Positions 2,161 through 29,625 of a DNA stretch of 32,000 nucleotides are shown piece by piece. The position numbers and the translations under genes are program-made. The notes under the pieces are model-generated. The model did no database searches. It saw only the letters and a program-made list of their open reading frames with translations, and was not told where the DNA came from. The DNA comes from Candidatus Saccharimonadota bacterium (lineage in GTDB: Bacteria > Patescibacteriota > Gracilibacteria > UBA4473), in assembly GCA_963677105.1 (NCBI GenBank), contig OY781871.1:180001-212000 (forward strand), given 5' to 3'. The stretch's first letter is position 1; every line of letters begins with the position of its first letter.

Positions 2161-2727
2161 TCATTTCAAATCTCCCAGATTCAAAAAATATTCATATATT
2201 CGTTTTTCTTTTGATAATTCGGGATGAAAACTAGAAATTAAAAAATTTCGATCCTGAAACAAAACTGGATCATCCTCAAAAGTTGCTAATATTTTAACGG
2301 ATGAATCAATGTTTTTAAATTTAGGTGCACGAATAAAAACTCCTTCTAGGTCTGGAAATTTCTGAGAAACAAGCGGAGCTATAAAGGAATGTTGTTGCGA
2401 TCCAAATCCATTTCTATCTACTTCAAATCGGGCACCTGCACGTGAACATAAAATCGCTCCTGCACACGTTCCAAACACTTTCAAAACATTGTCATTCCGG
2501 ACTTGATCCGAAATCCATTCCGTTCTTTTCACAAATAAATCCCACATATCTTTTTGCTCTAATAAAAGACGTAATGTTGTTGATTCTCCTCCAGGAATAA
2601 TTAAATGAGAAATCGATTCCAAATCACTTTTGCTTCGAACTTTTTTGTATTCCACATCAAGACTTTTTAACATTTCTTCGTGCTCAATAATCGAGCCTTG
2701 TAACGCCAATATTCCAACTTGATTCAT
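2161..2727 (-). CDS. pdxT: PLP synthase glutaminase subunit PdxT
   Basis: VGILALQGS..., IIPGGESTT, FGTCAG (catalytic Cys), FIRAP, SFHPEL. Start ATG overlaps the upstream gene's TGA (ATGA at 2724-2727). Confidence 0.9.
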   Translation of the reverse strand: MNQVGILALQGSIIEHEEMLKSLDVEYKKVRSKSDLESISHLIIPGGESTTLRLLLEQKDMWDLFVKRTEWISDQVRNDNVLKVFGTCAGAILCSRAGARFEVDRNGFGSQQHSFIAPLVSQKFPDLEGVFIRAPKFKNIDSSVKILATFEDDPVLFQDRNFLISSFHPELSKEKRIYEYFLNLGDLK

Positions 2728-3023
2728 TTCATTCCTGGTAAACTTTTTCGTACAGAATGAACAAATGCAACGAGCTCTTTTTTTCGTTTCTCTGGAATCT
2801 CATTCCATCGCTCTCCCGTAATCGCTCCTTCTAAAGCATATAAAAAACAAGAACACATTCCCTGTTCCCATCCATTTTTTTCAAAAATTCGTAAAAATAT
2901 TTCTTCCGGTCCAAGTTGTTTTAACTGTTCTGGCATTTCGACGCCAACTTCAAGTAATCGCTGCACACTCTTTTCTCCAAGATTTGGAAGTTTTTTCAAT
3001 TCTAATCCTTTCTTATTGCTCAT
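2724..3023 (-). CDS. TfoX C-terminal (helix-hairpin-helix) domain protein
   Basis: LKKLPNLGEKSVQRLLEVGVEMPEQLKQLGPEEIFLRI...FLYALEGAITGERWNEIPEKRKKEL matches the stand-alone TfoX_C pattern. Lies between pdxS and pdxT. Confidence 0.7.
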   Translation of the reverse strand: MSNKKGLELKKLPNLGEKSVQRLLEVGVEMPEQLKQLGPEEIFLRIFEKNGWEQGMCSCFLYALEGAITGERWNEIPEKRKKELVAFVHSVRKSLPGMK

Positions 3024-3064
3024 TTATATTTTGTACTTTGATATTTGTTATTTGCGATTTAGAG
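3023..3064 (-). repeat. heptamer array filling the pdxS-tfoX_C spacer
   Basis: TTTATAT TTTGTAC TTTGATA TTTGTTA TTTGCGA TTTAGAG: six units running from the tfoX_C ATG to 2 nt before the pdxS stop. Confidence 0.85.
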
Positions 3065-3066
3065 CG

Positions 3067-3933
3067 TTAGCGATTCGCATATTTCACTGCCAAAGAATCT
3101 ATTTCCAATCCTGGCATCGCAGAACCAAGTCCCGCCGCAATTTCTGCTAATTTCTCAGAATCATCGTAATGAGCAACGGCAAGAACCATTGCTCGTGCCA
3201 TTTTTTTGGGATTTTCTGCTGAAAAAATTCCTGAACCAACAAATACTCCATCTGCACCTAATTGCATCATCATTGCGGCATCGGCTGGCGTAGCAACTCC
3301 TCCTGCAACAAATGTAACTACTGGAAGTCTTCCTAGCTCTGAAACCTTTTTAATCAGTTCTTCTGGTACACCATATTCTTCTGCTTTTGCTGAAAAATCC
3401 GAATTCGGTAATTCAGAAATTTCACGTTCAATCTGTCGCCAATGACGAACTGCCTCAACAACATTTCCAGTTCCTGCTTCTCCTTTGGTTCGAATCATTG
3501 CTACGCCTTCATTTACACGACGAAGCGCTTCTCCCAAATTCCGAGCGCCACACACGAAGGGTAACTTAAATGGGGTTTTATCAATATGAAATTCTTCATC
3601 CGCAGGAGTTAATACTTCAGATTCATCAATAAAATCTATATCAAGCGATTCCAAAATCTGTGCTTCAACAAAATGTCCTACTCGTACTTTTGCCATCACC
3701 GGAATTGAAACCGCGTTTTTAATAGCTGTAATCATATTTGGATCGCTCGCACGTGCCACTCCGCCATCTTTACGAATCAAAGAAGGAATTCGTTCCAATG
3801 CCATAACTGCAACCGCTCCTGCTTCTTCTGCAATCTTTGCTTGTTCTACATTCATTACGTCCATAATCACTCCAGATTTCATCATCTGGGCAAGACCTGA
3901 TTTTAACGCGAAAGTGTTTTTAGAAATATTCAT
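3067..3933 (-). CDS. pdxS: PLP synthase subunit PdxS
   Basis: [53 protein letters not shown] and the rest is collinear with PdxS/SNZ. Confidence 0.95.
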
Positions 3934-5866: not shown

Positions 5867-5886
5867 TTTGAGTAAATTTTGAGAAT

Positions 5887-5919
5887 TTGTGCAAAACTTG
5901 TGAACAAATGGTGCACAAA
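5887..5919. promoter_or_regulatory. three direct 11-nt repeats at the rsmH promoter (candidate operator)
   Basis: TTGTGCAAAAC / TTGTGAACAAA / TGGTGCACAAA are contiguous with an 11-nt period. They lie just downstream of the predicted rsmH -10. Confidence 0.45.
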
Positions 5920-5922
5920 AAA

Positions 5923-5951
5923 ATCATAGAACAAAAAATGTGTTTATGCAA
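5923..5951 (-). promoter_or_regulatory. predicted sigma70-type promoter of rsmH
   Basis: Minus strand reads TTGCAT-N17-TATGAT (-35 at 5946-5951, -10 at 5923-5928). Confidence 0.45.
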
Positions 5952-6096
5952 CGATTTTTATCTTTTTCTCATTGACCTTAAAGAATCTCTGTGTTGTTTT
6001 TTTGTTCAACCTTCGATCAACTTTTTTCTGCAGACATTTTTGATAAATATTTTCCACTTACAATCAAATTTTTTTACACATAAATAATTTTAAATT

Positions 6097-6142
6097 TTTA
6101 TAATTTCAAGTTTGTATGTTGAAGTTTTAAGTAAAGTGAGTA
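6097..6142 (-). repeat. heptamer array, orphan copy in a divergent intergenic region
   Basis: Plus strand reads TTTATAA TTTCAAG TTTGTAT GTTGAAG TTTTAAG, then TAAAGTGAGTA. That tail is a decayed version of the CGGAGCGACTA box of the dgt copy. Confidence 0.7.
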
Positions 6143-6154
6143 CCATTCCTCTCG

Positions 6155-8110: not shown

Positions 8111-8166
8111 CTTGTTTATTATCTCTTGAGAACTCGATTTCGTCAACCCTCTGCAAGCTGGTTCAT

Positions 8167-11360: not shown

Positions 11361-11416
11361 TTTTAAGTTTCAATCCTCAGTCTTAATCCTTGAACTTTGT
11401 TCTCTGTGTTTTGATG
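11361..11416. repeat. degenerate heptamer-phased T-rich tract
   Basis: TTTTAAG TTTCAAT CCTCAGT CTTAATC CTTGAAC TTTGTTC TCTGTGT TTTGATG. Weak copy, antisense relative to the flanking + genes. Confidence 0.4.
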
Positions 11417-12775: not shown

Positions 12776-12790
12776 TTTTCGGTAAAATTG

Positions 12791-12884
12791 TTTGCACATT
12801 TTGTCCAGAGATTTCTATACTTTTTAGTTGCTCTTTGGTGGAATGTTTGTTACAAAATTTCATGTGCAATAAAGTTTTGCACAT
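12791..12884. promoter_or_regulatory. cluster of DnaA-box-like motifs upstream of dnaA (candidate autoregulatory site / oriC part)
   Basis: ATGTGCAA(A/T) at 12791-12799 (rev), 12862-12870 (fwd) and 12876-12884 (rev). TTGTCCAGA at 12801-12809 matches TTATCCACA at 7/9. Possible promoter TTGCAC-N18-TATACT at 12792-12821. Confidence 0.4.
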
Positions 12885-12905
12885 TCCCCTCCCCCTAACT
12901 TCAAA

Positions 12906-14327
12906 ATGGATAAAACCCAGGTATGGAATGCAGTTCTTGCTCGTATGGGCGAAAAGATTTCACGTATGGAATTTATAACTTGGTTCAAAAAAGTAGAACT
13001 TTCTCAAATATCGGGAGGTGCTGTTGAGCTGGTTTGTCCAACAGAGATGAATGCCAATTGGTTACAGTCAAAATACCATAGTATTATTTTAGCAAATATG
13101 CAGGCCGTGATGCCAGAAATTGATAAAATATTTTTTCGTGTTGATCTCTCTCTTGCCGATCAAGAAACCGACCATGAAGATCCAGCAATTTTTGCTGCAC
13201 CAACAAAGCCAAGAAAATTACCAAACAAACCAGAATCACGAATTGCTCCAGGACTAGATACTCGAATTACATTAGAAAAATTTTCTCTCGAAAATTTTAT
13301 CGTTGGTGACGAAAATCAATTTGCACATGCTGCGTGTCACGCAGTTATAAATGGTGCATGTGACCCAAAAACAAAACCACAATATAATCCTCTTTTCATA
13401 TTTGGAGGAGTTGGATTGGGAAAAACTCATATGCTTCAAGGAATCGCAAATGATATTCGAAAAAAAAATCCAGAAGTAGTGGTTCTTTATGTTACATCTG
13501 AACGGTTTATGAATGAAATCGTCCAAGCTATTAAAAATCGAAAAACGGATGAATTTAGAAAAAAATATCGACGTGTCGATGTTTTTCTTTTAGATGACGT
13601 ACAATTTTTTGAAGGAAAAGAAAAAACACAAGAAGAATTATTTAATACATTTAACGATTTATTTGAATTTGGAAAACAAATTGTTTTTGCGGCAGATCGA
13701 CCACCATCTGAATTGCTCGGAATTAGCGATCGACTTCGAAGTCGAATGGGTTGGGGGTTACTCGCAGATGTACAAATGCCAAATTTTGAAACACGTCTCG
13801 CAATTATTCAGGAAAAAATGCGCGAGAAACAAATGCTTCTTCCTCCTGATGTTCAGGAATTTGTTGCGACAAATATTCGTCACAATCTCCGAGAACTCGA
13901 AAATATTCTCAATCAAATTGTAGCGGAAATGGATTTACGAGGAATCTCTCCAACACCGCAAACTGTTGGAAAAATCTTCCGATCTATTAATCCCGAAAGA
14001 GAAATAGAAATTAAAGCAGACGGAACCTCTGCTCTTGCACGATGCACTGATGACATTATCACAATAATTTCTGATTATTTTCAGATTCCTGCAACAGAGA
14101 TTCTGGGAGTTTCACGAAAAAAAGAAATTGTATTCCCACGACAAATTTGCTGGCTCTTATGCAAAGACTTATTGAAAATGAGTTACGAAGCAATTGGAGA
14201 AGATTTTGGTGGAAAAAATCACACAACTATCATGCATGGAATACGAAAAATTCGAAACTTAGCGCGCACAGATAGTCAAACTGCACGTCATCTTCATGCG
14301 TTGAAAAAAGATTTGGGAGTAAAATAG
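12906..14327 (+). CDS. dnaA: chromosomal replication initiator DnaA
   Basis: GGVGLGKTHMLQ (Walker A), VFLLDDVQF, RELENIL, C-terminal DNA-binding domain (FGGKNHTTIMHGIRKI). Confidence 0.95.
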   Translation: MDKTQVWNAVLARMGEKISRMEFITWFKKVELSQISGGAVELVCPTEMNANWLQSKYHSIILANMQAVMPEIDKIFFRVDLSLADQETDHEDPAIFAAPTKPRKLPNKPESRIAPGLDTRITLEKFSLENFIVGDENQFAHAACHAVINGACDPKTKPQYNPLFIFGGVGLGKTHMLQGIANDIRKKNPEVVVLYVTSERFMNEIVQAIKNRKTDEFRKKYRRVDVFLLDDVQFFEGKEKTQEELFNTFNDLFEFGKQIVFAADRPPSELLGISDRLRSRMGWGLLADVQMPNFETRLAIIQEKMREKQMLLPPDVQEFVATNIRHNLRELENILNQIVAEMDLRGISPTPQTVGKIFRSINPEREIEIKADGTSALARCTDDIITIISDYFQIPATEILGVSRKKEIVFPRQICWLLCKDLLKMSYEAIGEDFGGKNHTTIMHGIRKIRNLARTDSQTARHLHALKKDLGVK

Positions 14328-14370
14328 TCGCTTCGCTCCAAAGTTCAAATTACAAAATACAAAGTGTAAA
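14325..14370 (+). repeat. stop-codon box plus heptamer array (dnaA 3' end)
   Basis: TAG TCGCTTCGCTCC, then CTCCAAA GTTCAAA TTACAAA ATACAAA GTGTAAA. This is the only copy with the A/C-rich strand on +, matching the + orientation of dnaA. Confidence 0.85.
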
Positions 14371-14377
14371 TAATATT

Positions 14378-14403
14378 GTCATTGCGAACGAAGTGCAGCA
14401 ATC
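14378..14403. repeat. short hairpin element GTCATTGCGAACGAAGTGCAGCAATC
   Basis: ATTGC (14381-14385) pairs with GCAAT (14398-14402) across a 12-nt loop. Its sequence resembles the GCGAAGCGA box. Function unknown. Confidence 0.4.
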
Positions 14404-14413
14404 TTTTCCTCTA

Positions 14414-14446
14414 CTTTAAAAATCGGGACTCCCTTGCGAGAGCCCC
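14414..14446 (-). terminator. intrinsic terminator of arcC (partly bidirectional)
   Basis: Minus sense: GGGGCUCUC-GCAA-GGGAGUCCC (9 bp including 2 G.U pairs, GNRA loop) followed by GAUUUUUAAAG. In plus sense the same stem has two A/C mismatches and is followed by TTTT. Confidence 0.7.
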
Positions 14447-14456
14447 TTTTGATTTA

Positions 14457-15401
14457 CTACATTGTGATTCGAGTTCCGGCGTTACCGAACAACGCCTCTG
14501 AAGCTTGAGAAAGTGCCGCAATAATAACAACTGCATTTTTATTGGCACTTCGCGTTACAAATTCCGTCGCTGCATCCATTTTCGGTCCCATGCTGCCGGG
14601 AGGAAAATGTCCGTCTCTTTTAAAGGCTTCCACTTCCGCTACCGTTAGGTGATCAAAAGATTTCTGCTCCGGAGTTCCATAATTAATATAGACTTTAGGC
14701 GCTGCTGTAAGTATCAATAACACATCCGCATCTATCGATAACGCAAATTCCATAGACGTAAAATCCTTGTCAACTACACCGTCGACTGGAATTATTTTTC
14801 CTGTATCAGACCAATATATTGGTGCTCCACCACCTCCACAAACAATAGGAACAAAACCACCTGACATTAATAAATCGGCTGCTTTGTCTTGCATAATAAC
14901 TTCCGGTTTGGGAGAAGGCACAACGACTCTAATTCCTTCCACATCTTCACCTTTATAGTAAGCAACATCATGTCCTGCTGCTCTCAGTGCATCTTCTTCT
15001 GATTGTGGATATGTTTTCCCTATATATTTCGTGGGTTTCTGCATCGCTGGATCATTTGGATCTACTTCTACAACTGTTCCTATTTGTACGACTTTTTTAT
15101 CAGATCCTTGCTGAGAAAGTCGCTCTTGTAATGCATAAAAAAGCATTAATCCAATCATCCCCTGGGTTCCACCACCAATCGTGTTCAAACTGGACTTATC
15201 TTCCCCATAAGACTCTTCCTTTTTCAGCATTAAGCCACTCTGGGGACCGTTACCATGTGTGATGGAAACTTGGTTCTCCGGATTACAAATAATTGGGATA
15301 ATTGCATCTGCAGCAACTCCTATCGCCGCTCTTTGTGCTCGTTCACTTAAGTCATTCCCTTGTTTAAGGGCATTTCCACCCGTAGCAATTACTACTTTCA
15401 T
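14457..15401 (-). CDS. arcC: carbamate kinase
   Basis: MKVVIATGGNAL, HGNGPQSG, VCGGGGAPI. Strong SD AAGGAGAAAGG upstream of the ATG. Confidence 0.9.
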   Translation of the reverse strand: MKVVIATGGNALKQGNDLSERAQRAAIGVAADAIIPIICNPENQVSITHGNGPQSGLMLKKEESYGEDKSSLNTIGGGTQGMIGLMLFYALQERLSQQGSDKKVVQIGTVVEVDPNDPAMQKPTKYIGKTYPQSEEDALRAAGHDVAYYKGEDVEGIRVVVPSPKPEVIMQDKAADLLMSGGFVPIVCGGGGAPIYWSDTGKIIPVDGVVDKDFTSMEFALSIDADVLLILTAAPKVYINYGTPEQKSFDHLTVAEVEAFKRDGHFPPGSMGPKMDAATEFVTRSANKNAVVIIAALSQASEALFGNAGTRITM

Positions 15402-15419
15402 ATCCTTTCTCCTTTTTCT

Positions 15420-15824
15420 TTACGCAACGAAATAAAATGTTGCTTTTAATTCTTTTGCCAAAATATGTGCCAATTCGGCAAGTGACAATTTTCGTCTTCT
15501 TTCTATAACCTTTGATTCGAATTCAACAATTTCTTTTAGGTAAAAGAATCCCGTGGTTTCTTGACTCCTTTCATTCCCATAGAAATCATCTACGGCCTGA
15601 ATTAAAGGTTTCTGCTTTAAATTCAAGACCATTCTTACCTGTAATCCTGCCTTTAAAAACACATACGTATACCCCGGAAATTCTTTTCCCAACAATGATA
15701 TTTTAATCTCATAAAACACACATTCTCCTTCTTTCTTTATTCTCAAATCACATAAACGTAAAAGATCAGCACGCTTCGAGCTTGAGTACCAAAACACCAA
15801 ATTGTTTAGTAGCTTAGTACTCAA
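15420..15824 (-). CDS. hypothetical protein (TTG start)
   Basis: 134-codon ORF with no in-frame ATG near the 5' end. Possible promoter TTGACT-N16-AATACT upstream. No family recognised. Confidence 0.4.
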   Translation of the reverse strand: MSTKLLNNLVFWYSSSKRADLLRLCDLRIKKEGECVFYEIKISLLGKEFPGYTYVFLKAGLQVRMVLNLKQKPLIQAVDDFYGNERSQETTGFFYLKEIVEFESKVIERRRKLSLAELAHILAKELKATFYFVA

Positions 15825-15902
15825 TTCGAAACACGACGCGAACAGTATTCATTATTTCTCAAAAAAGTCAACATACCCATTTTTTTTAAATAATCATCAC
15901 AA

Positions 15903-15948
15903 TTTAAAGTTTGTAGTTTGAAGATTGTAGTTTGGAGCGAAGCGACTA
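15903..15948 (-). repeat. stop-codon box plus heptamer array (mfd 3' end)
   Basis: Plus strand: TTTAAAG TTTGTAG TTTGAAG ATTGTAG TTTGGAG CGAAGCGA CTA. Gene sense: TAG TCGCTTCGCTCC AAACTACAATCTTCAAACTACAAACTTTAAA. Confidence 0.85.
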
Positions 15949-18900
15949 TTTGTTCTTTGATAATAACGTTCCAATTTCACTTATAAGTTCGTCATACCAA
16001 GTTACTGGCAACTTTTCGAGCTTCAATTTCAATGATGTAGCGGTAATCGTCCACTGATATTTTCCTTTTTGAACTAATCCAAAAATTTGATCTGGTGTAA
16101 AGTTCTTTCCCATTCTCAACACTATTTCATATGATTTGTGAGACGAACGATTAATTTTTACTCCTGATAAATTTGTTTCACGCAATAACATTTTCATGCG
16201 AATCACTCGGCACAAATTTTCTACTTCCAACGGTAATGTTCCAAAATCCATGCGTAAATCTCGACGCATTTCATCTAGTGCTTCCTGTGTTTCAGTTGAA
16301 GCTAATTCTTGATACACACGAATTTTTTCAGCTGCATTTGGAATAAAGTGAACCGGAATATAAGCAGATAATGGAATCTCTACCGTGATATTTTCAGTTT
16401 CTTCTATTTCAGCAGAAAGTTCTCCTCGACGCATTTGATCCACTGTTTTGTTTAACATTCTCATGAAATGGGAAACTCCAACATTTTTGATCGCTCCTGC
16501 TTGATTTACACCTAAAACTTCTCCCGCTCCACGAATTTCTAAATCACGCATTGCAATTTGAAATCCTGATCCAAGTTCGTTTGCTTCAACAATTGCACGC
16601 AATCGTTTCTTCGCTTCAAGCGCTAATTTTTGTCCATGATACAAGAAAAATGCATATGCTTGTGTTCGTCCTCGACCAACTCGCCCACGCAATTGATACA
16701 ACTGTGATAATCCAAATTTTTCTGCTCGCGACACAATCAATGTATTTGCGTTCGATAAATCGATTCCATTTTCAATAATTGTAGAAGCTATTAGAACTTG
16801 CGCTTCTCCGTTTTTAAATGCACGAACTTTTTGCTCTAATTCTTCTGGTTTTAATTGTCCATGTGCAACAAGAAACTTTACCTCTGGAACAAGCGCTTCT
16901 AATTGTTTTGCTAATCCATCAATAGATCGAACTTCATTATGCAAAAAATACACTTGTCCTCCTCGCGCTGTTTCGAAAAGAATCCGTTCACGAATTAAAT
17001 TCAAATTATATTTTCGTACTTCCGTCACAACCGGAAGTCTTCCTGGCGGAGGTGTCGTAATAGTTGAAATATCTTTCAACTTGTTCAAACTCATATTTAA
17101 TGTACGAGGAATCGGTGTCGCGGTCATCGTCAACACATGAACTCCCGAACGAAATCGTTTCAATTTTTCTTTTTGCTTCACTCCAAACCTCTGTTCTTCG
17201 TCGACCACAATTAATCCAATATTTTTAAATTTAATATCTTCTGATAACAAGCGATGTGTTCCAATCACAATATCGACTAATCCAAGTTCTATTTTTTTCA
17301 AAATATCTTTTTGCTCTGCTGCAGACTGAAATCGTGATAATAGCGCAATTTCTACACCAAAATTTTTCCCATCAATTCGTTTCTGAAACGATTGCCAATG
17401 TTGTTCTGCCAAAATAGTAATCGGTGCCAAAATAGCGGCCTGCATTCCACTTCGAAATGTTTTAAATGCCGCTCGCATAGCAATTTCTGTTTTCCCAAAC
17501 CCAACATCTCCACAAACCAATCGATCCATTGGACGGGAAGATTCTAAATCTCTTCTTACATCATCCCACGCATTTGATTGTCCAGGCGTAAGTTCATATG
17601 GAAATCCTTCGTTAAACTCATGCATCATTGGATCGTCTGCCGAGAATGGTTTTCCTTTTGCCAACTCTCGTAATGCATATAATTTTAAAAGTTCCTTTGC
17701 TATTTTTTCTGCTTCTACATGTAATTTCTTTTGTGATTGTTGCCAATCTGATGCTCCCAATCGAGTTAATTTCGGTGCTTCATCTCCCAAAAATTTCGTA
17801 ATTTTCTCTGCTGATGCAACCGGAATAAAAAGTTTATCATTTCCGGCATATCCTAATCGCAAAAACTCTCGAACACCTAATTCCTCACTCAATTCTCGAC
17901 GCACAATTCCTTCGAATTTCGCAACTCCATGATCGGAATGAACGACATAATCTCCTGATTTCAAAGACAACATCAATTCTGTATTTATTCCAGAAATCGC
18001 TTTCTTTTGACGAGAAGTTCGATGAAACTGAAAAATTTCTTTATCGGTCAAAAAAACAAATTTTTGATCATTATTTTGAAATGAATGTGGTGCAATATCA
18101 GCTGGATCCAGCTCTATCACTTTTACTGTACTTGGCGTTGTATCAGATAAATCTTTCGTAAACATAATATCGTTTTCTCGAAAAATTGTTTCTAATTCCT
18201 CAAACTTTTTCGTTGCAATTGCGATAATAAATCCACGATGAAATCGCTCTTTCACATCTACAACAAAATCTGGAATCGTATAAAACGGTAATACGGAAAA
18301 GAAATTAAGATGAAAAAATATTTCATCCTCTCCGGGAAATGTTGTAAATTTTATCGTTGGAAACGGCGTTTCTGGAATCCCATCCGAGTCCAAATCATCT
18401 GCCAAAAAAACACTTGGCATATCTGATGGTAAAAGTTCCCATAAGGTTGATCCTCGATTTTCTCCGAATTTCACTGGAAAAGCTGAAACTGTTTCTACCT
18501 CTGAAATTTCAATATTTTTTTCTTGATCAATGGACGCAATTCGCTCCACTTGATCACCAAACAATTCCATTCGTATGCAATGTTCTCCATTAATTGGGAA
18601 CACAAAAAGATTTTCTCCTCGACGCACAAATTCTCCTGGTTGAACAATACGATCTTCTGCCGCAACATATCCAATTCGCGCCAAATGTTCAAATGTTTCA
18701 AAAAGCTGAATCGTTTCTCCTGATCGAATAATAACTGAATCTTCCTGAAACGCCTCTTCTGTTGGAAAACGTTGTTCGCAAGTTTTTTCAAAATCCTCAA
18801 ACAACAATAACATTGGCTTCTCTGCTCTCGCTAAAGAGAGCACTTTATAGAGTTGTGCTGGTTGTAAAGTCGCTGGTAATTCTATAACTTCTCCTGCAAA

Positions 18901-19113
18901 GAATAACGCCGCAGATGAAGCGATCGCATCTGAATGTTCGTCTGTAGATGCCCAAAACACATTTCGAAAATGCGTTCGTTGTAGCATTTGCGTTACTAAA
19001 AAATTTTTCGCCGCATTATTTGCGAGATTCACTAAAGTAACTCTCCCACTTTTTTCAAGTTCCACTAAAGGATCTGAAAGATCTAAATCGAACGGGAGCG
19101 ATGTCAACTTCAT
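15946..19113 (-). CDS. mfd: transcription-repair coupling factor Mfd
   Basis: CarD-like region (GDYVVHSDHGVAKFEG), superfamily 2 helicase motifs (GDVGFGKTE, DEEQRFG, TATPIPRT, QLRGRVGR), C-terminal TRCF domain. Confidence 0.95.
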   Translation of the reverse strand: MKLTSLPFDLDLSDPLVELEKSGRVTLVNLANNAAKNFLVTQMLQRTHFRNVFWASTDEHSDAIASSAALFFAGEVIELPATLQPAQLYKVLSLARAEKPMLLLFEDFEKTCEQRFPTEEAFQEDSVIIRSGETIQLFETFEHLARIGYVAAEDRIVQPGEFVRRGENLFVFPINGEHCIRMELFGDQVERIASIDQEKNIEISEVETVSAFPVKFGENRGSTLWELLPSDMPSVFLADDLDSDGIPETPFPTIKFTTFPGEDEIFFHLNFFSVLPFYTIPDFVVDVKERFHRGFIIAIATKKFEELETIFRENDIMFTKDLSDTTPSTVKVIELDPADIAPHSFQNNDQKFVFLTDKEIFQFHRTSRQKKAISGINTELMLSLKSGDYVVHSDHGVAKFEGIVRRELSEELGVREFLRLGYAGNDKLFIPVASAEKITKFLGDEAPKLTRLGASDWQQSQKKLHVEAEKIAKELLKLYALRELAKGKPFSADDPMMHEFNEGFPYELTPGQSNAWDDVRRDLESSRPMDRLVCGDVGFGKTEIAMRAAFKTFRSGMQAAILAPITILAEQHWQSFQKRIDGKNFGVEIALLSRFQSAAEQKDILKKIELGLVDIVIGTHRLLSEDIKFKNIGLIVVDEEQRFGVKQKEKLKRFRSGVHVLTMTATPIPRTLNMSLNKLKDISTITTPPPGRLPVVTEVRKYNLNLIRERILFETARGGQVYFLHNEVRSIDGLAKQLEALVPEVKFLVAHGQLKPEELEQKVRAFKNGEAQVLIASTIIENGIDLSNANTLIVSRAEKFGLSQLYQLRGRVGRGRTQAYAFFLYHGQKLALEAKKRLRAIVEANELGSGFQIAMRDLEIRGAGEVLGVNQAGAIKNVGVSHFMRMLNKTVDQMRRGELSAEIEETENITVEIPLSAYIPVHFIPNAAEKIRVYQELASTETQEALDEMRRDLRMDFGTLPLEVENLCRVIRMKMLLRETNLSGVKINRSSHKSYEIVLRMGKNFTPDQIFGLVQKGKYQWTITATSLKLKLEKLPVTWYDELISEIGTLLSKNK

Positions 19114-19235: not shown

Positions 19236-19272
19236 TAAATTAAAAAAGGTGCGGATCACGAGGGATCCGCAC
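19236..19272 (-). terminator. intrinsic terminator of the 19-codon sORF
   Basis: GTGCGGATC (19249-19257) pairs with GATCCGCAC (19264-19272): 9 perfect bp with a 6-nt loop. Minus-sense tail is CTTTTTTAATTT. Confidence 0.8.
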
Positions 19273-19301: not shown

Positions 19302-19361
19302 TTAACGATTACCAGCGAGTTCTTCTACATTCATGATTGCGATTGTTGTTATTTTTTTCAT
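19302..19361 (-). CDS. 19-aa small ORF, MKKITTIAIMNVEELAGNR
   Basis: Below the ORF-track cutoff. AAAGGAGGTG SD 6 nt before the ATG, the best SD in the window. Has its own promoter candidates and terminator. Confidence 0.45.
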   Translation of the reverse strand: MKKITTIAIMNVEELAGNR

Positions 19362-20881: not shown

Positions 20882-23800
20882 ATGAAAATATTACCTTCGT
20901 TTTCGGGACTAGCAATGATTAACAAACGATTCCTTTGGAATGAAGTTTCATTAAATAAAGAATCTCTTGGCGGAAAAGCCGAGTGGGCAAAAGAACAATT
21001 AAAAAAAGAAACGGCCGATGATCTCGGAAATTTATTAGAAAAAGATGTTCTCACAAAAGAGAATGTTATTACATTACTCGATACAGATACTGCAAAACAA
21101 AATTGGAATAAAAAAACAGATACACCAGCAAATTCTGCGCGTTATGTCTTAGCATTACAAGCTGGATTAAAAATCTTAGGACAAAATCCTGGAACAATTG
21201 ATGCAATGTGGGGAAACAATACAAAAAATGCTGTTATAGCATTTCAGACAAAATGGAATACAGATAATCCAAAAGATGTAATTGCTGTAGACGGAGCTCC
21301 AGGACCTCAAACGATTGGACGAATGCTTCAAGCATTAGGGAAAACTCCTACTACTCAACCTCAAGCACAAACAAATAAACCCGCTCCAAAACCTGTTGTT
21401 GCTCAAAAAGTTAAAACTTCAGAAGCTGTAACCGTAACGGAACACCCTGATGAAAAAGTATCAAAATTGAGTATAGAAAATATACCTACTGATGAAAAAG
21501 ATTTTTATAACGTACAAATTCCAGCTACTACATCTGAAAAAGTAGATGAAAATTTTGCACAAGAACAACTGAACTCAAAACTCACTCTCATTAAAGAATT
21601 GACGATTAGTAGTGAAAAATATGAGGACGTGTGTAAGGATGACCCAAATTGGGGAAATTTCAAAAACTTAGTAGCACAAAAACAAACAGATATTCTTAAT
21701 GAATACAAACAATCAATCAAAGACTTAGAAAGTGGTAAGATAGTTTCTTTAAAAGGAAGTATTAAGGGAGATATCTCGGCTCTTGCAGATAAAACTATTG
21801 ATGATTTATTAGCTAAAGCTGGTATTCAAATAGATTCTTTTGATAAACTAGATGTCGAAACTTCTAACACAGAAACAAGAACAGAAGCTGTTGAGCAAAC
21901 AGCTGTTGTAAAAAAAGGTTCTGAAAACAACAAAAATACAGAAAGAGTACTGTTTGACGACATTGTGTTTACACCAGAAGTAACCAATCAATTAATAAGT
22001 ATTTTAAATGGAAGAACTACTGTTACTAAGCAAGATGAAAAAAAACTTGAAGATTGGTATAATGCAAAGAAAAATAATGAAACAAAAGATGATTCCGATC
22101 TAATTGACTCAAATGCAACTGAATCTTCTGAAACCGAAAAAACAAATCCATCTGATTTTATTAAAGGTGGAAAATGGATCGATGGCGCAAAAGAAAACAT
22201 AAAAGTAGATGGAATTAATAAAATTGTTGCTGTAAATGAATATGGAATTATTCAAGGAGCTAATGAAGCCGCTCTTTGTAACATGAAAGATGGTTCATTA
22301 TTTGAACACAATGGAAAAAATGTGTTTGGAGCTATCGATTACAACGCAAATTCTCAAACATATGAAATCTATCCAACACAAACAGATCCTGAAATTAAGG
22401 TGAAACTTGAAAATGGAGTATTTAAAGTAGTAACAGAAGAAAAAACCGAAGAACCTGTTGCTGTAGAAAAAAAGGAAGTAACTAAGTCTACAAATCCAAG
22501 TGATTACATTGAGGGAGGAAAATGGAAAAATAAAGAAGAAGCCGAAAAAAATATTAAAATCGATGAAATTGGTACTGTTGAAACTTTAAATGACAATGGA
22601 ATTATTCAGGGATCGAATAATAAATACGTTCTTATGAATATGAAAACTGGAAAACTTGCTACATTAAATACAGGAGGAATAGCAACTTACGATAGCATTT
22701 CATATAATTCCAAAAATGAAACATACACACTTAATGGTCAATTAAAGGTAAAACTGAATGACAAAAATGAGTTTGCTATGCTTCCAGAAGAAAAAGAAAC
22801 ACAAAACAAAAAAGTATTAAATAAATTAAAGGAAATTGGAGGAGAAAGCTTAGATAAACCGTTTACTCTTGAAGGACTAACTTTTACTCCTGATACAACA
22901 AATATAGATGCTACAAAACATATATTTAAATCTGTTTACAAGGAACAAGTATTTGAAATTACAATTTCTACAACCGATCCCGTTAATTCAACTTTATCTC
23001 TTACAAGTAAAGCCGGCCTTTCTCTTATAAACCAAGAGGTAACAACTGCGAAAAATTTAAAAACATATATAACAGGGGCCAAAGAACTAATTGATAAGCA
23101 AAATACTATTTCTGAAGATAGTAAAAAAATACTCGATATGAATGTAACAAGTGAAAGCCTTGAAGAATTCACGGCATTAATTACTAAAACATATCCTACT
23201 AGAGATACTGATTTTTGGAAAAATAATCCTAATATAGCTGAAAAGTGTAAAAGTGAAATTATCGATAAAAAAGATGAGTCATATGCAAAATTAGAACTTC
23301 TTCTGTCTACAAACGATATAGAAGAATACAAGAAATATCTTAAATCTGATGCTGCAGAAACTCACGAAAAACTTGGAAAAGCATATAAAGATGTTTTCGA
23401 TTCCTCAGCAACAAATTACTTCACAAAACCAATGATTGAACAAATGCTTCAAGAAAAAATTAAGAAAATTGAGTCTGTCGAAGGATCTTCTTGGAAACAA
23501 CCAAAAGAAAATAGTGAAATTGATTTTAATCATACGAATTATCCGAAAAGCATCATTTTACATGAAAAAGATTCTAACCGACTTATGGCTCAAAAATATA
23601 TTAATGGGCAACTCTTAGAATTAAAATTAGCTGAAAAAAATATCACAAAAGAAGTAGAAAAATATGATAATGTCACTCAATCGCTTATTAAATCCGCATT
23701 AACAGATAAAACTATTTCTATATTAGATACTGTAAAAGATTGTATTTCTAATGCCAACGGACGAAGAATTCATATTAAAAAAGATGACATCTCTCCCTGG

Positions 23801-24244
23801 AAAAATCTTATTACAAATGCTAAAAACAATGTAATAAAAGCTTATGAAGAAGGAACGTTTTCATTCGATGATCGTATCAAAATTGATCTCGATAACCTTG
23901 AATTTTCTGAAGATACTTCTGAAGAATCAAAAAAAATACTTCTATCATTAAAAAAAGATTTAAATAGAAATAACGATTCACATAAATACTCTAATGACGA
24001 AGGAAAAACTGTCTACGAAACATCGCGTGGTCATAAAGGATTTATAATCAAAAAAGAAAACTACAATAAACTGGGACAAGGTACAAACGATATAAATAAT
24101 AGAAAATTAGAAAAAACTACTTACTACAATTACACTGTAGAAATAAATCCAGAAACTGGAATTGCAACACTTACCTGTAAAGAAAATGATATAAAAACAA
24201 TAAATGAAAAGGAAGAAAATAAACCAGAATCTACTAATAACTAA
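20882..24244 (+). CDS. large (1120 aa) peptidoglycan-binding-domain protein with K/E/N/T-rich repeats
   Basis: PG_binding_1-like segment at aa 84-152: ARYVLALQAGLKILGQNPGTIDAMWGNNTKNAVIAFQ...VDGAPGPQTIGRMLQAL. P/T/Q linker, then about 950 aa with no recognised family. No clear signal peptide. Confidence 0.8.
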   Translation: MKILPSFSGLAMINKRFLWNEVSLNKESLGGKAEWAKEQLKKETADDLGNLLEKDVLTKENVITLLDTDTAKQNWNKKTDTPANSARYVLALQAGLKILGQNPGTIDAMWGNNTKNAVIAFQTKWNTDNPKDVIAVDGAPGPQTIGRMLQALGKTPTTQPQAQTNKPAPKPVVAQKVKTSEAVTVTEHPDEKVSKLSIENIPTDEKDFYNVQIPATTSEKVDENFAQEQLNSKLTLIKELTISSEKYEDVCKDDPNWGNFKNLVAQKQTDILNEYKQSIKDLESGKIVSLKGSIKGDISALADKTIDDLLAKAGIQIDSFDKLDVETSNTETRTEAVEQTAVVKKGSENNKNTERVLFDDIVFTPEVTNQLISILNGRTTVTKQDEKKLEDWYNAKKNNETKDDSDLIDSNATESSETEKTNPSDFIKGGKWIDGAKENIKVDGINKIVAVNEYGIIQGANEAALCNMKDGSLFEHNGKNVFGAIDYNANSQTYEIYPTQTDPEIKVKLENGVFKVVTEEKTEEPVAVEKKEVTKSTNPSDYIEGGKWKNKEEAEKNIKIDEIGTVETLNDNGIIQGSNNKYVLMNMKTGKLATLNTGGIATYDSISYNSKNETYTLNGQLKVKLNDKNEFAMLPEEKETQNKKVLNKLKEIGGESLDKPFTLEGLTFTPDTTNIDATKHIFKSVYKEQVFEITISTTDPVNSTLSLTSKAGLSLINQEVTTAKNLKTYITGAKELIDKQNTISEDSKKILDMNVTSESLEEFTALITKTYPTRDTDFWKNNPNIAEKCKSEIIDKKDESYAKLELLLSTNDIEEYKKYLKSDAAETHEKLGKAYKDVFDSSATNYFTKPMIEQMLQEKIKKIESVEGSSWKQPKENSEIDFNHTNYPKSIILHEKDSNRLMAQKYINGQLLELKLAEKNITKEVEKYDNVTQSLIKSALTDKTISILDTVKDCISNANGRRIHIKKDDISPWKNLITNAKNNVIKAYEEGTFSFDDRIKIDLDNLEFSEDTSEESKKILLSLKKDLNRNNDSHKYSNDEGKTVYETSRGHKGFIIKKENYNKLGQGTNDINNRKLEKTTYYNYTVEINPETGIATLTCKENDIKTINEKEENKPESTNN
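22142..22800 (+). repeat. intragenic tandem duplication (2 x about 116 aa)
   Basis: TNPSDFIKGGKW...ENIKVD...GIIQGAN...NMKDG...YN..SQTYE...KVKLENG aligns with TNPSDYIEGGKW...KNIKID...GIIQGSN...NMKTG...YNSKNETY...KVKLNDK. Offset is 348 nt. Confidence 0.8.
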
Positions 24245-26715: not shown

Positions 26716-26760
26716 ACTTTAATTAAATCGCGTTGCTTTAAATAAAAACAGAATCCCCAA

Positions 26761-26790
26761 TTTGAAGTTTGTACTTTGCTGTTTAATCTA
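26761..26790 (-). repeat. heptamer array abutting the murA stop codon
   Basis: TTTGAAG TTTGTAC TTTGCTG TTTAAT, then CTA (TAG stop). Confidence 0.8.
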
Positions 26791-28453: not shown

Positions 28454-28499
28454 TTTGTTATTTGATATTTGTACTTTGAAGTTTTAAGCGGAGCGACTA
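28454..28499 (-). repeat. stop-codon box plus heptamer array (dgt 3' end)
   Basis: TTTGTTA TTTGATA TTTGTAC TTTGAAG TTTTAAG CGGAGCGA CTA. Gene sense: TAG TCGCTCCGCTT AAAACTTCAAAGTACAAATATCAAATAACAAA. Confidence 0.85.
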
Positions 28500-29564: not shown

Positions 29565-29586
29565 TTTCAAGACTTATTATGTAAAA

Positions 29587-29625
29587 TTTAGAGTTTGTAG
29601 ATTGAAGATTGCTTTCTTGCGCTCC
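29587..29625 (-). repeat. heptamer array, copy directly upstream of the dgt start
   Basis: TTTAGAG TTTGTAG ATTGAAG ATTGCTT TCTTGCGCTCC. Closest to the mfd copy (shared CAATCTTCAA.CTACAAACT.TAAATT). Confidence 0.7.

Follow-up and report, generated by a model that had tools for sequence, protein, structure and literature searches.

The window analysed here, a 32-kb stretch of contig OY781871.1 from a Candidatus Saccharimonadota bacterium (assembly GCA_963677105.1, positions 180,001 to 212,000 of the forward strand), contains the genes dnaA and mfd in convergent orientation and, between them, an arcC-type carbamate kinase gene and an open reading frame (ORF) encoding 134 amino acids. A 21-nt sequence spans the stop codon of dnaA and recurs, inverted, across the stop codon of mfd. 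Our survey of the window and of related genomes suggests that these two arms are members of a small, fast-evolving family of intergenic repeats, each made of a stop triplet, a GC-rich box and an array of degenerate heptanucleotides. The dnaA–mfd region is organized as follows:

12906–14327, + strand: dnaA (Pfam Bac_DnaA, DnaA_N, DnaA_C), stop codon TAG at 14325–14327
14425–14446, − strand: GC-rich hairpin with T-runs on both sides, assigned by a terminator scan as the arcC intrinsic terminator
14457–15401, − strand: arcC-type carbamate kinase (Pfam AA_kinase, NCBIfam arcC)
15420–15824, − strand: 134-aa ORF (ORF134), no family match
15844–15871, − strand: sigma-70-like promoter candidate for ORF134–arcC (TTGACT-16-AATACT), from a consensus scan only
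15946–19113, − strand: mfd, transcription-repair coupling factor (Pfam TRCF, CarD_TRCF_RID, DEAD, UvrB_inter)

The hairpin at 14425–14446 plausibly terminates dnaA as well, acting in both directions, and the promoter candidate lies downstream of the repeat copy behind mfd. No recombinase, transposase, integrase or invertase is encoded in the 32-kb window.

The 21-mer, AAATAGTCGCTTCGCTCCAAA, is located at 14322–14342 (+) and its reverse complement at 15931–15951, with no further match in the window at up to 3 mismatches. An earlier sequence-only reading of this DNA had reported both positions and judged a 21-mer match not to be expected by chance in 32 kb, and both statements are borne out: none of 100 dinucleotide-preserving shuffles contained any 21-mer match. 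The two arms span the last AAA lysine codon and the TAG stop of dnaA (+) on the left and of mfd (−) on the right and are followed by a heptamer array, again as reported, and their coordinates place them on either side of arcC and the 134-aa ORF. Specifically, the native AAA lysine codon accounts for 3 nt of the 21-mer, and the remainder is the TAG stop plus a GC-rich box of 15 nt, TCGCTTCGCTCCAAA. Beyond the perfect match, imperfect pairing of the arms continues to a total of 50 nt (14322–14371 / 15902–15951), at 84% complementarity. The box of the dnaA and mfd arms is identical at 18/18 positions; their array parts agree at 22/32 positions, as in any other pair of copies (18–23/32), which argues against a recent inverted duplication of 50 nt.

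The arms belong to a family whose unit is a stop triplet, a 15-nt GC-rich box (TCGCTYCGCTYMAAA) and three to five degenerate A-N-T-W-C-A-A heptads. Six box-bearing copies occur in the window, at dnaA, mfd, dgt, pdxS and g1517 plus one decaying orphan, together with at least two boxless arrays (E values are those of the profile described below):

1487–1528, − strand: copy behind the SNase-like gene g1517, reading ...GCTGCT TAA AAGTTCAAA..., E=8.6e-6
3024–3069, − strand: pdxS copy, TAA, half-box CGCTCTAAA and five heptads, E=5.4e-8
6097–6142, − strand: orphan copy, TAC TCACTTTACTTAAAA and heptads, E=2.1e-7
14325–14371, + strand: dnaA copy, TAG at 14325–14327 and box TCGCTTCGCTCCAAA at 14328–14342, E=3.5e-12
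14343–14371, + strand: heptads of the dnaA copy, GTTCAAA TTACAAA ATACAAA GTGTAAA(T)
15902–15948, − strand: mfd copy, TAG at 15948–15946 and box at 15945–15931, E=1.2e-11
15930–15902, − strand: heptads of the mfd copy, CTACAAT CTTCAAA CTACAAA CTTTAAA
25704–25739, − strand: boxless array abutting the g25739 stop
26759–26790, − strand: boxless array abutting the murA stop, with an array of similar units at about the same place in the relative L016 (17268–17308)
28454–28499, − strand: dgt copy, TAG and box variant TCGCTCCGCTTAAAA, E=3.7e-11
within 28454–28499, − strand: heptads of the dgt copy, CTTCAAA GTACAAA TATCAAA TAACAAA
28497–29570, − strand: dgt gene, ending in TAG TCGCTCCGCTTAAAA

A sequence-only profile built from six copies, with the g1517 copy left out of its training, finds full-length box plus array at dnaA, mfd, dgt, pdxS, the 6097–6142 orphan and g1517; across 604 kb of clade DNA, its only full-length match outside the window lies behind dnaN of the relative L002. 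The box thus recurs at gene ends, as the sequence-only reading had supposed, in the close variant it had noted at dgt (followed by heptads) and in further variants behind pdxS, g1517 and the L002 dnaN. Five of the six box-bearing copies in the window abut a stop codon. A position weight matrix of the heptads recovers 9 arrays in the window versus 0.65 in Markov shuffles, a contrast that is partly circular in that the matrix was trained on the window arrays themselves. All nine are intergenic, and seven abut a stop and are sense to the upstream gene (SNase-like g1517, pdxS, dnaA, mfd, g25739, murA and dgt). Tandem Repeats Finder reports a period of 7/14 at 15903–15934. Weak arrays also occur outside the sense-after-stop arrangement, at 29582–29609 (−) upstream of dgt in a divergent region and at 11383–11410 (−) antisense after g10723, so that this arrangement is not absolute even in the window.

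Several copies depart from the pattern seen at dnaA, mfd and dgt. The pdxS copy reaches the start codon of a TfoX_C gene and fills the 43-nt gap between the two genes. At g1517, the box remnant overlaps the stop codon in another register. The orphan stands behind no gene; it is antisense to, and upstream of, a genuine + strand membrane-protein gene. Its box part differs from that of the dgt copy at five positions, four of them by a C>T or G>A transition, and TAC replaces TAG. Because the box differences are mostly transitions, the orphan has the look of a homologous copy in decay, and not of a signal that evolved independently. The TfoX_C-domain gene next to the pdxS copy (99 aa, 2724–3023, −) lies between pdxS and pdxT and overlaps pdxT by ATGA.

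The sequence-only reading had further suggested that the element supplies, or is selected together with, the stop codon, and had raised the question whether it replaces the native C-terminus; here it is only partly right. Comparison with orthologous 3′ ends shows DnaA, Mfd and Dgt to have native termini: the DnaA C-terminus ...KKDLGVK is shared by essentially all of about 40 relatives, Mfd aligns with its L002 counterpart to residue 1055/1055, and the Dgt alignment reaches within three residues of the end in L016. Likewise, PdxS ends in ...KYANR, which aligns with the conserved ...RFANR of PDX1.3; a candidate case of a stop lying inside the box at pdxS was downgraded since ...YANR is a conserved native end. 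By contrast, the repeat does seem to carry its stop triplet along. TAG is the stop at each of the three copies that are perfect or nearly so (dnaA, mfd and dgt); orthologues without the box have TAA in most cases, with 30 TAA, 6 TGA and 4 TAG (dnaA) or 7 TAA, 3 TGA and 2 TAG (mfd). The repeat unit therefore seems to include the stop triplet, of which the orphan keeps TA(C), as would be expected if recombination spreads copies and selection removes tracts that reach into coding sequence. A read-through peptide was considered and rejected: the in-frame extensions past TAG (SLRSKVQITKYKV*, SLRSKLQSSNYKL* and SLRLKLQSTNIK*) differ by non-synonymous changes only and so give no sign of coding.

DnaA-based retrieval places the window among metagenome-assembled genomes labelled Candidatus Gracilibacteria, Peribacteria or Altimarinota, and comparison with these relatives reveals a rapid turnover of the repeats. 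Relatives at 85–92% DnaA identity have no box at dnaA or mfd. Between the window and L002 (89% DnaA identity), the g9363 terminator, the g8930 junction and the DnaA-box region after purA are recognisably conserved, whereas every repeat-bearing flank is unrelated from the first base past the stop. L002 carries a box variant (TAA TCGCGCTATGTGCTCCAAA) plus heptads behind dnaN, a place taken in the window by a plain hairpin terminator, and an array behind the RNase III gene, where the window retains one heptad. L241 (88% DnaA identity) has a boxless array of window-like heptads behind mfd (ACTTTAA TCTACAA ACTTTAA ACTACAA) and a second array behind dnaN, with nothing behind dnaA. In L239, neither box nor array was found anywhere in 11.6 kb. 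Because the mfd array of L241 is boxless, the comparison indicates that the array at this position predates the box, which in the window's lineage sits between stop and array.

Box plus first heptad had no match in a metagenome scan. The 42 matches to a 17-nt box pattern in viruses correspond to chance, with 6/42 preceded by T and none of the 42 followed by heptads. TCGCT is not enriched after stops in the relatives (9 sense versus 13 antisense). A different GC-rich repeat (GTGACACYCC...GGAACTYATCCCGCGAATGCGGGATC) begins at the first base past the dnaA stop (TGA or TAA) in three relatives, at about 1438–1500 in L001, 11411–11470 in L010 and 4905–5020 in L017; small repeats abutting a stop therefore seem to be a habit of the clade.

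The spacer that the two arms flank is itself highly variable. In 12 relatives, dnaA (+) and mfd (−) are convergent neighbours with dnaN next, the stop-to-stop distance ranges from 202 to 2,124 nt, and the spacer content is unrelated among genomes (small ORFs, hairpin repeats or nothing obvious). Since dnaA and mfd converge, any pair of sense-oriented 3′ repeats behind them automatically forms an inverted repeat. Neither arcC nor ORF134 has a homologue in the 42 species-representative loci, and ORF134 has none in any relative locus compared. The closest database homologues of ArcC are 44% identical and lie in ordinary arcA-arcB-arcD-arcC (arginine deiminase) operons of unrelated bacteria, so that a search for the donor of arcC came to nothing. 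Exact-protein look-ups with DnaA, Mfd and ArcC matched no record. In L239/L240, at 92% DnaA identity the closest relative found, the dnaA–mfd spacer likewise contains carbamate kinase: at 8133–10047 of L239 (from JGI sample 3300049393) lie two carbamate-kinase-like genes of 238 and 337 aa, the intact one 46% identical to the window ArcC, adjoining mfd rather than dnaA, and accompanied by an unrelated partner ORF. Because the L239 kinase is only 46% identical, differently placed and free of the repeat, the dnaA–mfd spacer is indicated to be a hotspot of gene turnover whose repeat arms are not tied to the kinase gene. The proposal that the arms bracket an invertible or inserted segment found no positive support, given the convergent genes, the mostly solo copies and the lack of a recombinase gene in the window.

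Heptanucleotide arrays are a feature of the whole clade. In 572 kb comprising the window and 38 related loci, we found 28 arrays of period 7 versus 0 in Markov shuffles, while periods 8–12 gave about 0–6 arrays (observed/shuffled 6/1 for period 8 and 1/0 for period 9). Their density is 0.5–1.25 per kb in intergenic versus 0.035 per kb in coding DNA. Clade arrays hug ORF boundaries, more often on the stop side (19/40 in tandem regions) and also on the start side and in divergent regions, and their units vary widely across L001–L042; L016 alone has 13 arrays in 21 kb. Inverted array pairs are frequent: close pairs with gaps of 17–102 nt fold into hairpins, and distant ones, 433–3,641 nt apart, enclose ORFs. 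In L019, AGAGAAG arrays at 17460–17494 and 17928–17959 stand in sense behind a convergent CorC gene and g25739 orthologue, on either side of an ORF of 121 aa; in the window, 58 nt separate those two genes. A generic heptad scan of metagenome sequence (at least 120 loci) yielded mostly perfect, microsatellite-like arrays at all GC contents with no orientation preference (19 versus 17), and its ‘box-like’ heads were coding coincidences, in L10 of L059 and in the ORF start of L144. A literature search on heptamers in Gracilibacteria found nothing.

Genetic code 25 (UGA=Gly) was considered for these genomes and rejected. The window has 0 in-frame TGA in 6,048 codons of 12 conserved genes, against 406 GGN codons, and three gene pairs overlap by ATGA; relatives (L002, L004, L007, L016, L019 and others) likewise lack sense TGA. 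Given the absence of in-frame TGA and the ATGA stop/start overlaps, the standard code is indicated despite the Gracilibacteria label of the relatives, and code 25 is not to be assumed.

The box also has a connection outside the clade, in the form of a second element of the spacer, GTCATTGCGAACGAAGTGCAGCAATC, which starts 36 nt downstream of the dnaA box:

14378–14403, + strand: degenerate palindromic-repeat copy, 23/26 match to the short form GTCATTGCGAGCGAAGCGAAGCAATC, core complementary to the box

This element resembles a very widespread small palindromic repeat, and a search was made with the 22-mer GGAGCGAAGCGACGAAGCAATC. The 22-mer has 32 exact matches in 30 viral-contig stretches (L205–L234), with none expected by chance. 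Their contexts define a 32-nt consensus, GTCATTGCGAGGAGCGAAGCGACGAAGCAATC, which is near-identical in contigs of 39% to 70% GC and is often paired with GGATTGCTTCGCTTCGCTCGCAATGAC to give a long hairpin; further copies occur in L087 (2176–2207) and L115 (about 612–637). The central 13 nt of this repeat, GGAGCGAAGCGAC, are the exact reverse complement of the box core GTCGCTTCGCTCC, which the reverse complement of GTCATTGCGAGGAGCGAAGCGACGAAGCAATC accordingly contains at 13/13 positions. In the full palindromic repeat, the core GGAGCGAAGCGAC lies between GTCATTGC...GCAATC stem arms, which the box copies lack. For the box, a derivation from the 32-nt repeat, or a motif in common with it, is probably a better description than membership. 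Related GC-rich hairpin repeats occur in the intergenic DNA of relatives, some of them abutting the dnaA stop (L001, L010 and L017).

We found no published description of the 32-nt repeat GTCATTGCGAGGAGCGAAGCGACGAAGCAATC and no Rfam family for it. No known RNA family matches the region 14250–16000 at E≤1, and the canonical palindrome gives spurious miRNA-hairpin matches only. In L115 (560–710), a pilin-like gene has a copy of the palindromic repeat, flanks included, inserted at its 5′ end, where a direct duplication of ~40 nt spans the start codon and a coding TACAAAA heptad run; the heptad ‘array’ scored in this contig is the coding N-terminus of that gene and was discarded.

As RNA, the repeat-bearing 3′ flanks tend towards little structure. 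Their folds are less stable than those of shuffles behind mfd (z = +1.9), dgt (z = +1.1) and pdxS (z = +1.0); the dnaA flank does not deviate significantly (z = −0.36), nor is the pairing of its box with the 14378–14403 element in the minimum free energy fold significant. The box-bearing flanks contain more C than G (9/5, 13/2 and 11/4). The terminator scan placed hairpins at arcC, in the mfd–dnaN spacer (19249–19272), at g20882 and at rpmA, and none within the repeat copies. The low-structure, C-over-G tract measures ~45 nt; a Rho utilization (rut) site comprises about 60–80 nt of unstructured, C-rich, G-poor RNA past the stop, in a host with Rho. No rho gene was found in the relatives' loci, which span just ±10 kb around dnaA. 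Reading the TTTG-rich strand as an antisense promoter or UP-element was rejected, the promoter distances being inconsistent and some copies having no downstream gene. The low structure would be compatible with a factor-loading or a spacer role in the 3′ untranslated region (UTR).

Starting from what is established here (the repeat family and its positions, its turnover, the native C-termini, the convergent synteny and the identity of the core), we infer a near-neutral interspersed repeat that turns over through recombination and slippage between its heptad arrays while selection cuts it back to the stop codon, and we give this explanation a probability of roughly 0.55. On this view, the inverted repeat around arcC and ORF134 is two oppositely oriented members of a lineage-specific repeat, which face each other only because dnaA and mfd converge. 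Copies would be gained and lost by recombination or gene conversion between heptad arrays, plus slippage, and purifying selection on coding sequence would trim the survivors so that they begin at an exchangeable stop codon. In the transcript, the element would make up the initial ~50 nt of the 3′ UTR, an unstructured, C/A-rich stretch for which hardly any function, or none, is required. Four observations speak against a required function: the lack of positional conservation at 88–92% DnaA identity, the existence of the orphan copy, the copy that fills the 43-nt pdxS–TfoX_C gap, and the bidirectional hairpin terminator that already follows dnaA. Several observations weigh against this explanation. 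The box is kept perfectly between two copies while their arrays diverge, which could mean a selected function, and the three best copies all stand behind genes of DNA metabolism (dnaA, mfd and dgt). The two most similar boxes happen to flank lineage-variable DNA, a coincidence that the explanation must accept. Clade arrays are not strictly 3′-associated or sense-oriented, and the sense bias of the window rests on few cases, with copy counts covering 32 kb of this genome. Neither a mechanism of spread nor, in the window, a transposase came to light.

The conservation of the box could instead reflect a functional 3′-UTR element, either loading an RNA-level termination or processing factor (for example at a Rho-type rut site located at the point of ribosome release) or serving a shared regulator of dnaA, mfd and dgt. 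Such a role would account for sense-oriented copies directly past stops, for the excess of C over G in flanks less structured than shuffles, and for a box that stays 18/18 identical while the arrays drift; it would also suit the choice of DNA-metabolism genes for the best three copies, the retention of the 13-nt core in a repeat of very different genomes, and the location of the module behind mfd, dgt and murA, where it precedes the promoter candidate of the following gene. We nevertheless consider it unlikely, as the module is not kept at orthologous gene ends at 88–92% DnaA identity even though the g9363 terminator is conserved there, one copy occupies the 43-nt pdxS–TfoX_C gap, the orphan sits ahead of a gene, the tract is short (about 45 nt), and dnaA already has its downstream bidirectional hairpin terminator. 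A more specific version, in which the 13-nt core is the site of a widely conserved trans-acting factor co-opted with the stop and the CAA-heptads as a 3′-end signal of replication and repair genes, strikes us as a long shot. If the box did act at the RNA level, it would represent a new kind of 3′-end signal; the present evidence does not favour this.

The geometry of the locus invites other explanations. The two arms may once have been adjacent, forming a bidirectional terminator hairpin of ~50 bp into whose loop arcC–ORF134 later entered. Joined, they would fold at about −47 kcal/mol, and suitable precedents exist: close inverted array pairs (17–102 nt gaps) folding into long hairpins are common in relatives, similar hairpins lie between convergent ORFs in the unrelated metagenome contigs L097, L080 and L106, and L019 has the same bracketed geometry. 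This split palindrome is nonetheless improbable in our view, because no relative has a dnaA–mfd palindrome, L241 has its array behind mfd only, the arms pair no better in their array parts than any two family members would, and the dgt, pdxS and g1517 copies are solo. Still harder to sustain is a mobile or invertible cassette, with the 21–50-nt arms acting as recombination sites for the 1.6-kb arcC–ORF134 segment and possibly including a TA target duplication. The flanked DNA is indeed absent from most relatives, both junctions read TA|GTCGC...GCGAC|TA, and a crossover within the 21-mer would spare both genes. However, the 32 kb encode no transposase, integrase or invertase; the arms abut two different native stops, an outcome that a single insertion event could not give in a spacer of 200 nt or more; solo copies occur elsewhere without partners; the L239 spacer has a carbamate kinase without arms; and the box-plus-heptad pattern is unmatched in the metagenome collection, with viral matches to the 17-nt box at chance level. 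A length of 21 bp, moreover, at most just reaches what RecA needs for efficient recombination. We therefore regard a cassette as very improbable. A chance similarity or an assembly artefact at the 21-mer is barely credible: 21 nt is a common smallest k-mer of assemblers and one assembly of the organism is on record, but 0/100 shuffles match, the similarity reaches 50 nt and sits within a six-member family, coherent genes with a promoter candidate and a terminator make up the locus, and the source contig is 962 kb long.

Among described elements, the closest analogue is the heptanucleotide STRR (short tandemly repeated repetitive) sequences, 7-bp repeats of filamentous cyanobacteria whose function is unknown and for which roles in transcript stability or translational coupling have been proposed (PMC2670836). 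Both are intergenic arrays of 7-bp period that can form hairpins through inverted copies, and period 7 is over-represented in the present clade. Unlike STRR sequences, the arrays described here occur in a host of the candidate phyla radiation (CPR; Gracilibacteria class) rather than in heterocystous or filamentous cyanobacteria, have A/T-rich units (ANTWCAA, AGAGAAG and others) instead of canonical ones such as CCCCAGT, are short (3–5 units) and degenerate where STRR arrays are near-perfect, and, in the window, carry at their head a non-heptameric, GC-rich box that is fused to the stop.

Repetitive extragenic palindromes of proteobacteria and the bacterial interspersed mosaic elements that they form (REP/BIME) are extragenic, lie just past stops in transcribed 3′ UTRs, are often mutually inverted and turn over fast. 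The repeats of the window share with them, and with BOX-, RUP- or Correia-like elements, the character of a short interspersed extragenic repeat downstream of stops with inverted copies and rapid turnover. By contrast, the box-plus-heptad unit is not palindromic and its RNA is less structured than random; it has no GTAG-type head, terminal inverted repeats or target duplications, and the window encodes no REP-associated tyrosine transposase (RAYT, IS200/IS605-like) or other transposase. From the 32-nt palindromic repeat the box differs in lacking ATTGC/GCAAT stem arms, in being fused to heptads and stop, and in its fixed sense orientation. Two inverted arms around 1.6 kb of lineage-variable DNA do recall an invertible segment, an insertion sequence or a miniature inverted-repeat transposable element. 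However, no inverted partner accompanies the copies at dgt, pdxS and g1517 or the orphan, the 1.6-kb unit is present a single time, the TA at the junctions belongs to two different native stop codons rather than to a target duplication, and the segment encodes carbamate kinase and the 134-aa ORF only, with no recombinase in 32 kb. Integron attC sites, with their RYYYAAC and GTTRRRY core sites, differ as well, since the GTTCAAA-type heptads have C where the GTTRRRY core needs a purine, and the window has no integrase. We thus describe a small interspersed intergenic repeat, STRR- or REP-like, which is apparently an undescribed feature of these reduced genomes.

The importance of the case is modest, as a stop-supplying element around an invertible arcC cassette gives way to an ordinary explanation. 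What it brings out is that uncultured CPR genomes carry fast-evolving heptanucleotide arrays, often as inverted pairs, at gene boundaries. Such repeats mark hotspots of gene turnover such as the dnaA–mfd spacer and can confuse both the annotation of gene ends and assembly; they might also serve as strain markers.

The surroundings of the locus show further lineage-specific features. Between dnaN and a CorC-type gene lies a gene for a 1,120-aa protein (20882–24244, +) with a peptidoglycan-binding domain and internal repeats of ~350 nt (22142–22618); it is absent from this position in 8/8 relatives mapped gene by gene. The convergent mfd separates dnaA from dnaN, an arrangement conserved in the clade. 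In the window, the mfd–dnaN spacer measures 482 nt and holds a 19-codon ORF (MKKITTIAIMNVEELAGNR) at 19302–19361 (−) with a strong AGGAGG Shine-Dalgarno sequence and its own hairpin terminator (19249–19272); without this ORF, the spacer is 225–265 nt long in four relatives. DnaA-box-like motifs lie upstream of dnaA (12776–12905) and in a divergent spacer of 288 nt (5867–6154), with perfect TTWTNCACA at 5888, 6072 and 12875.

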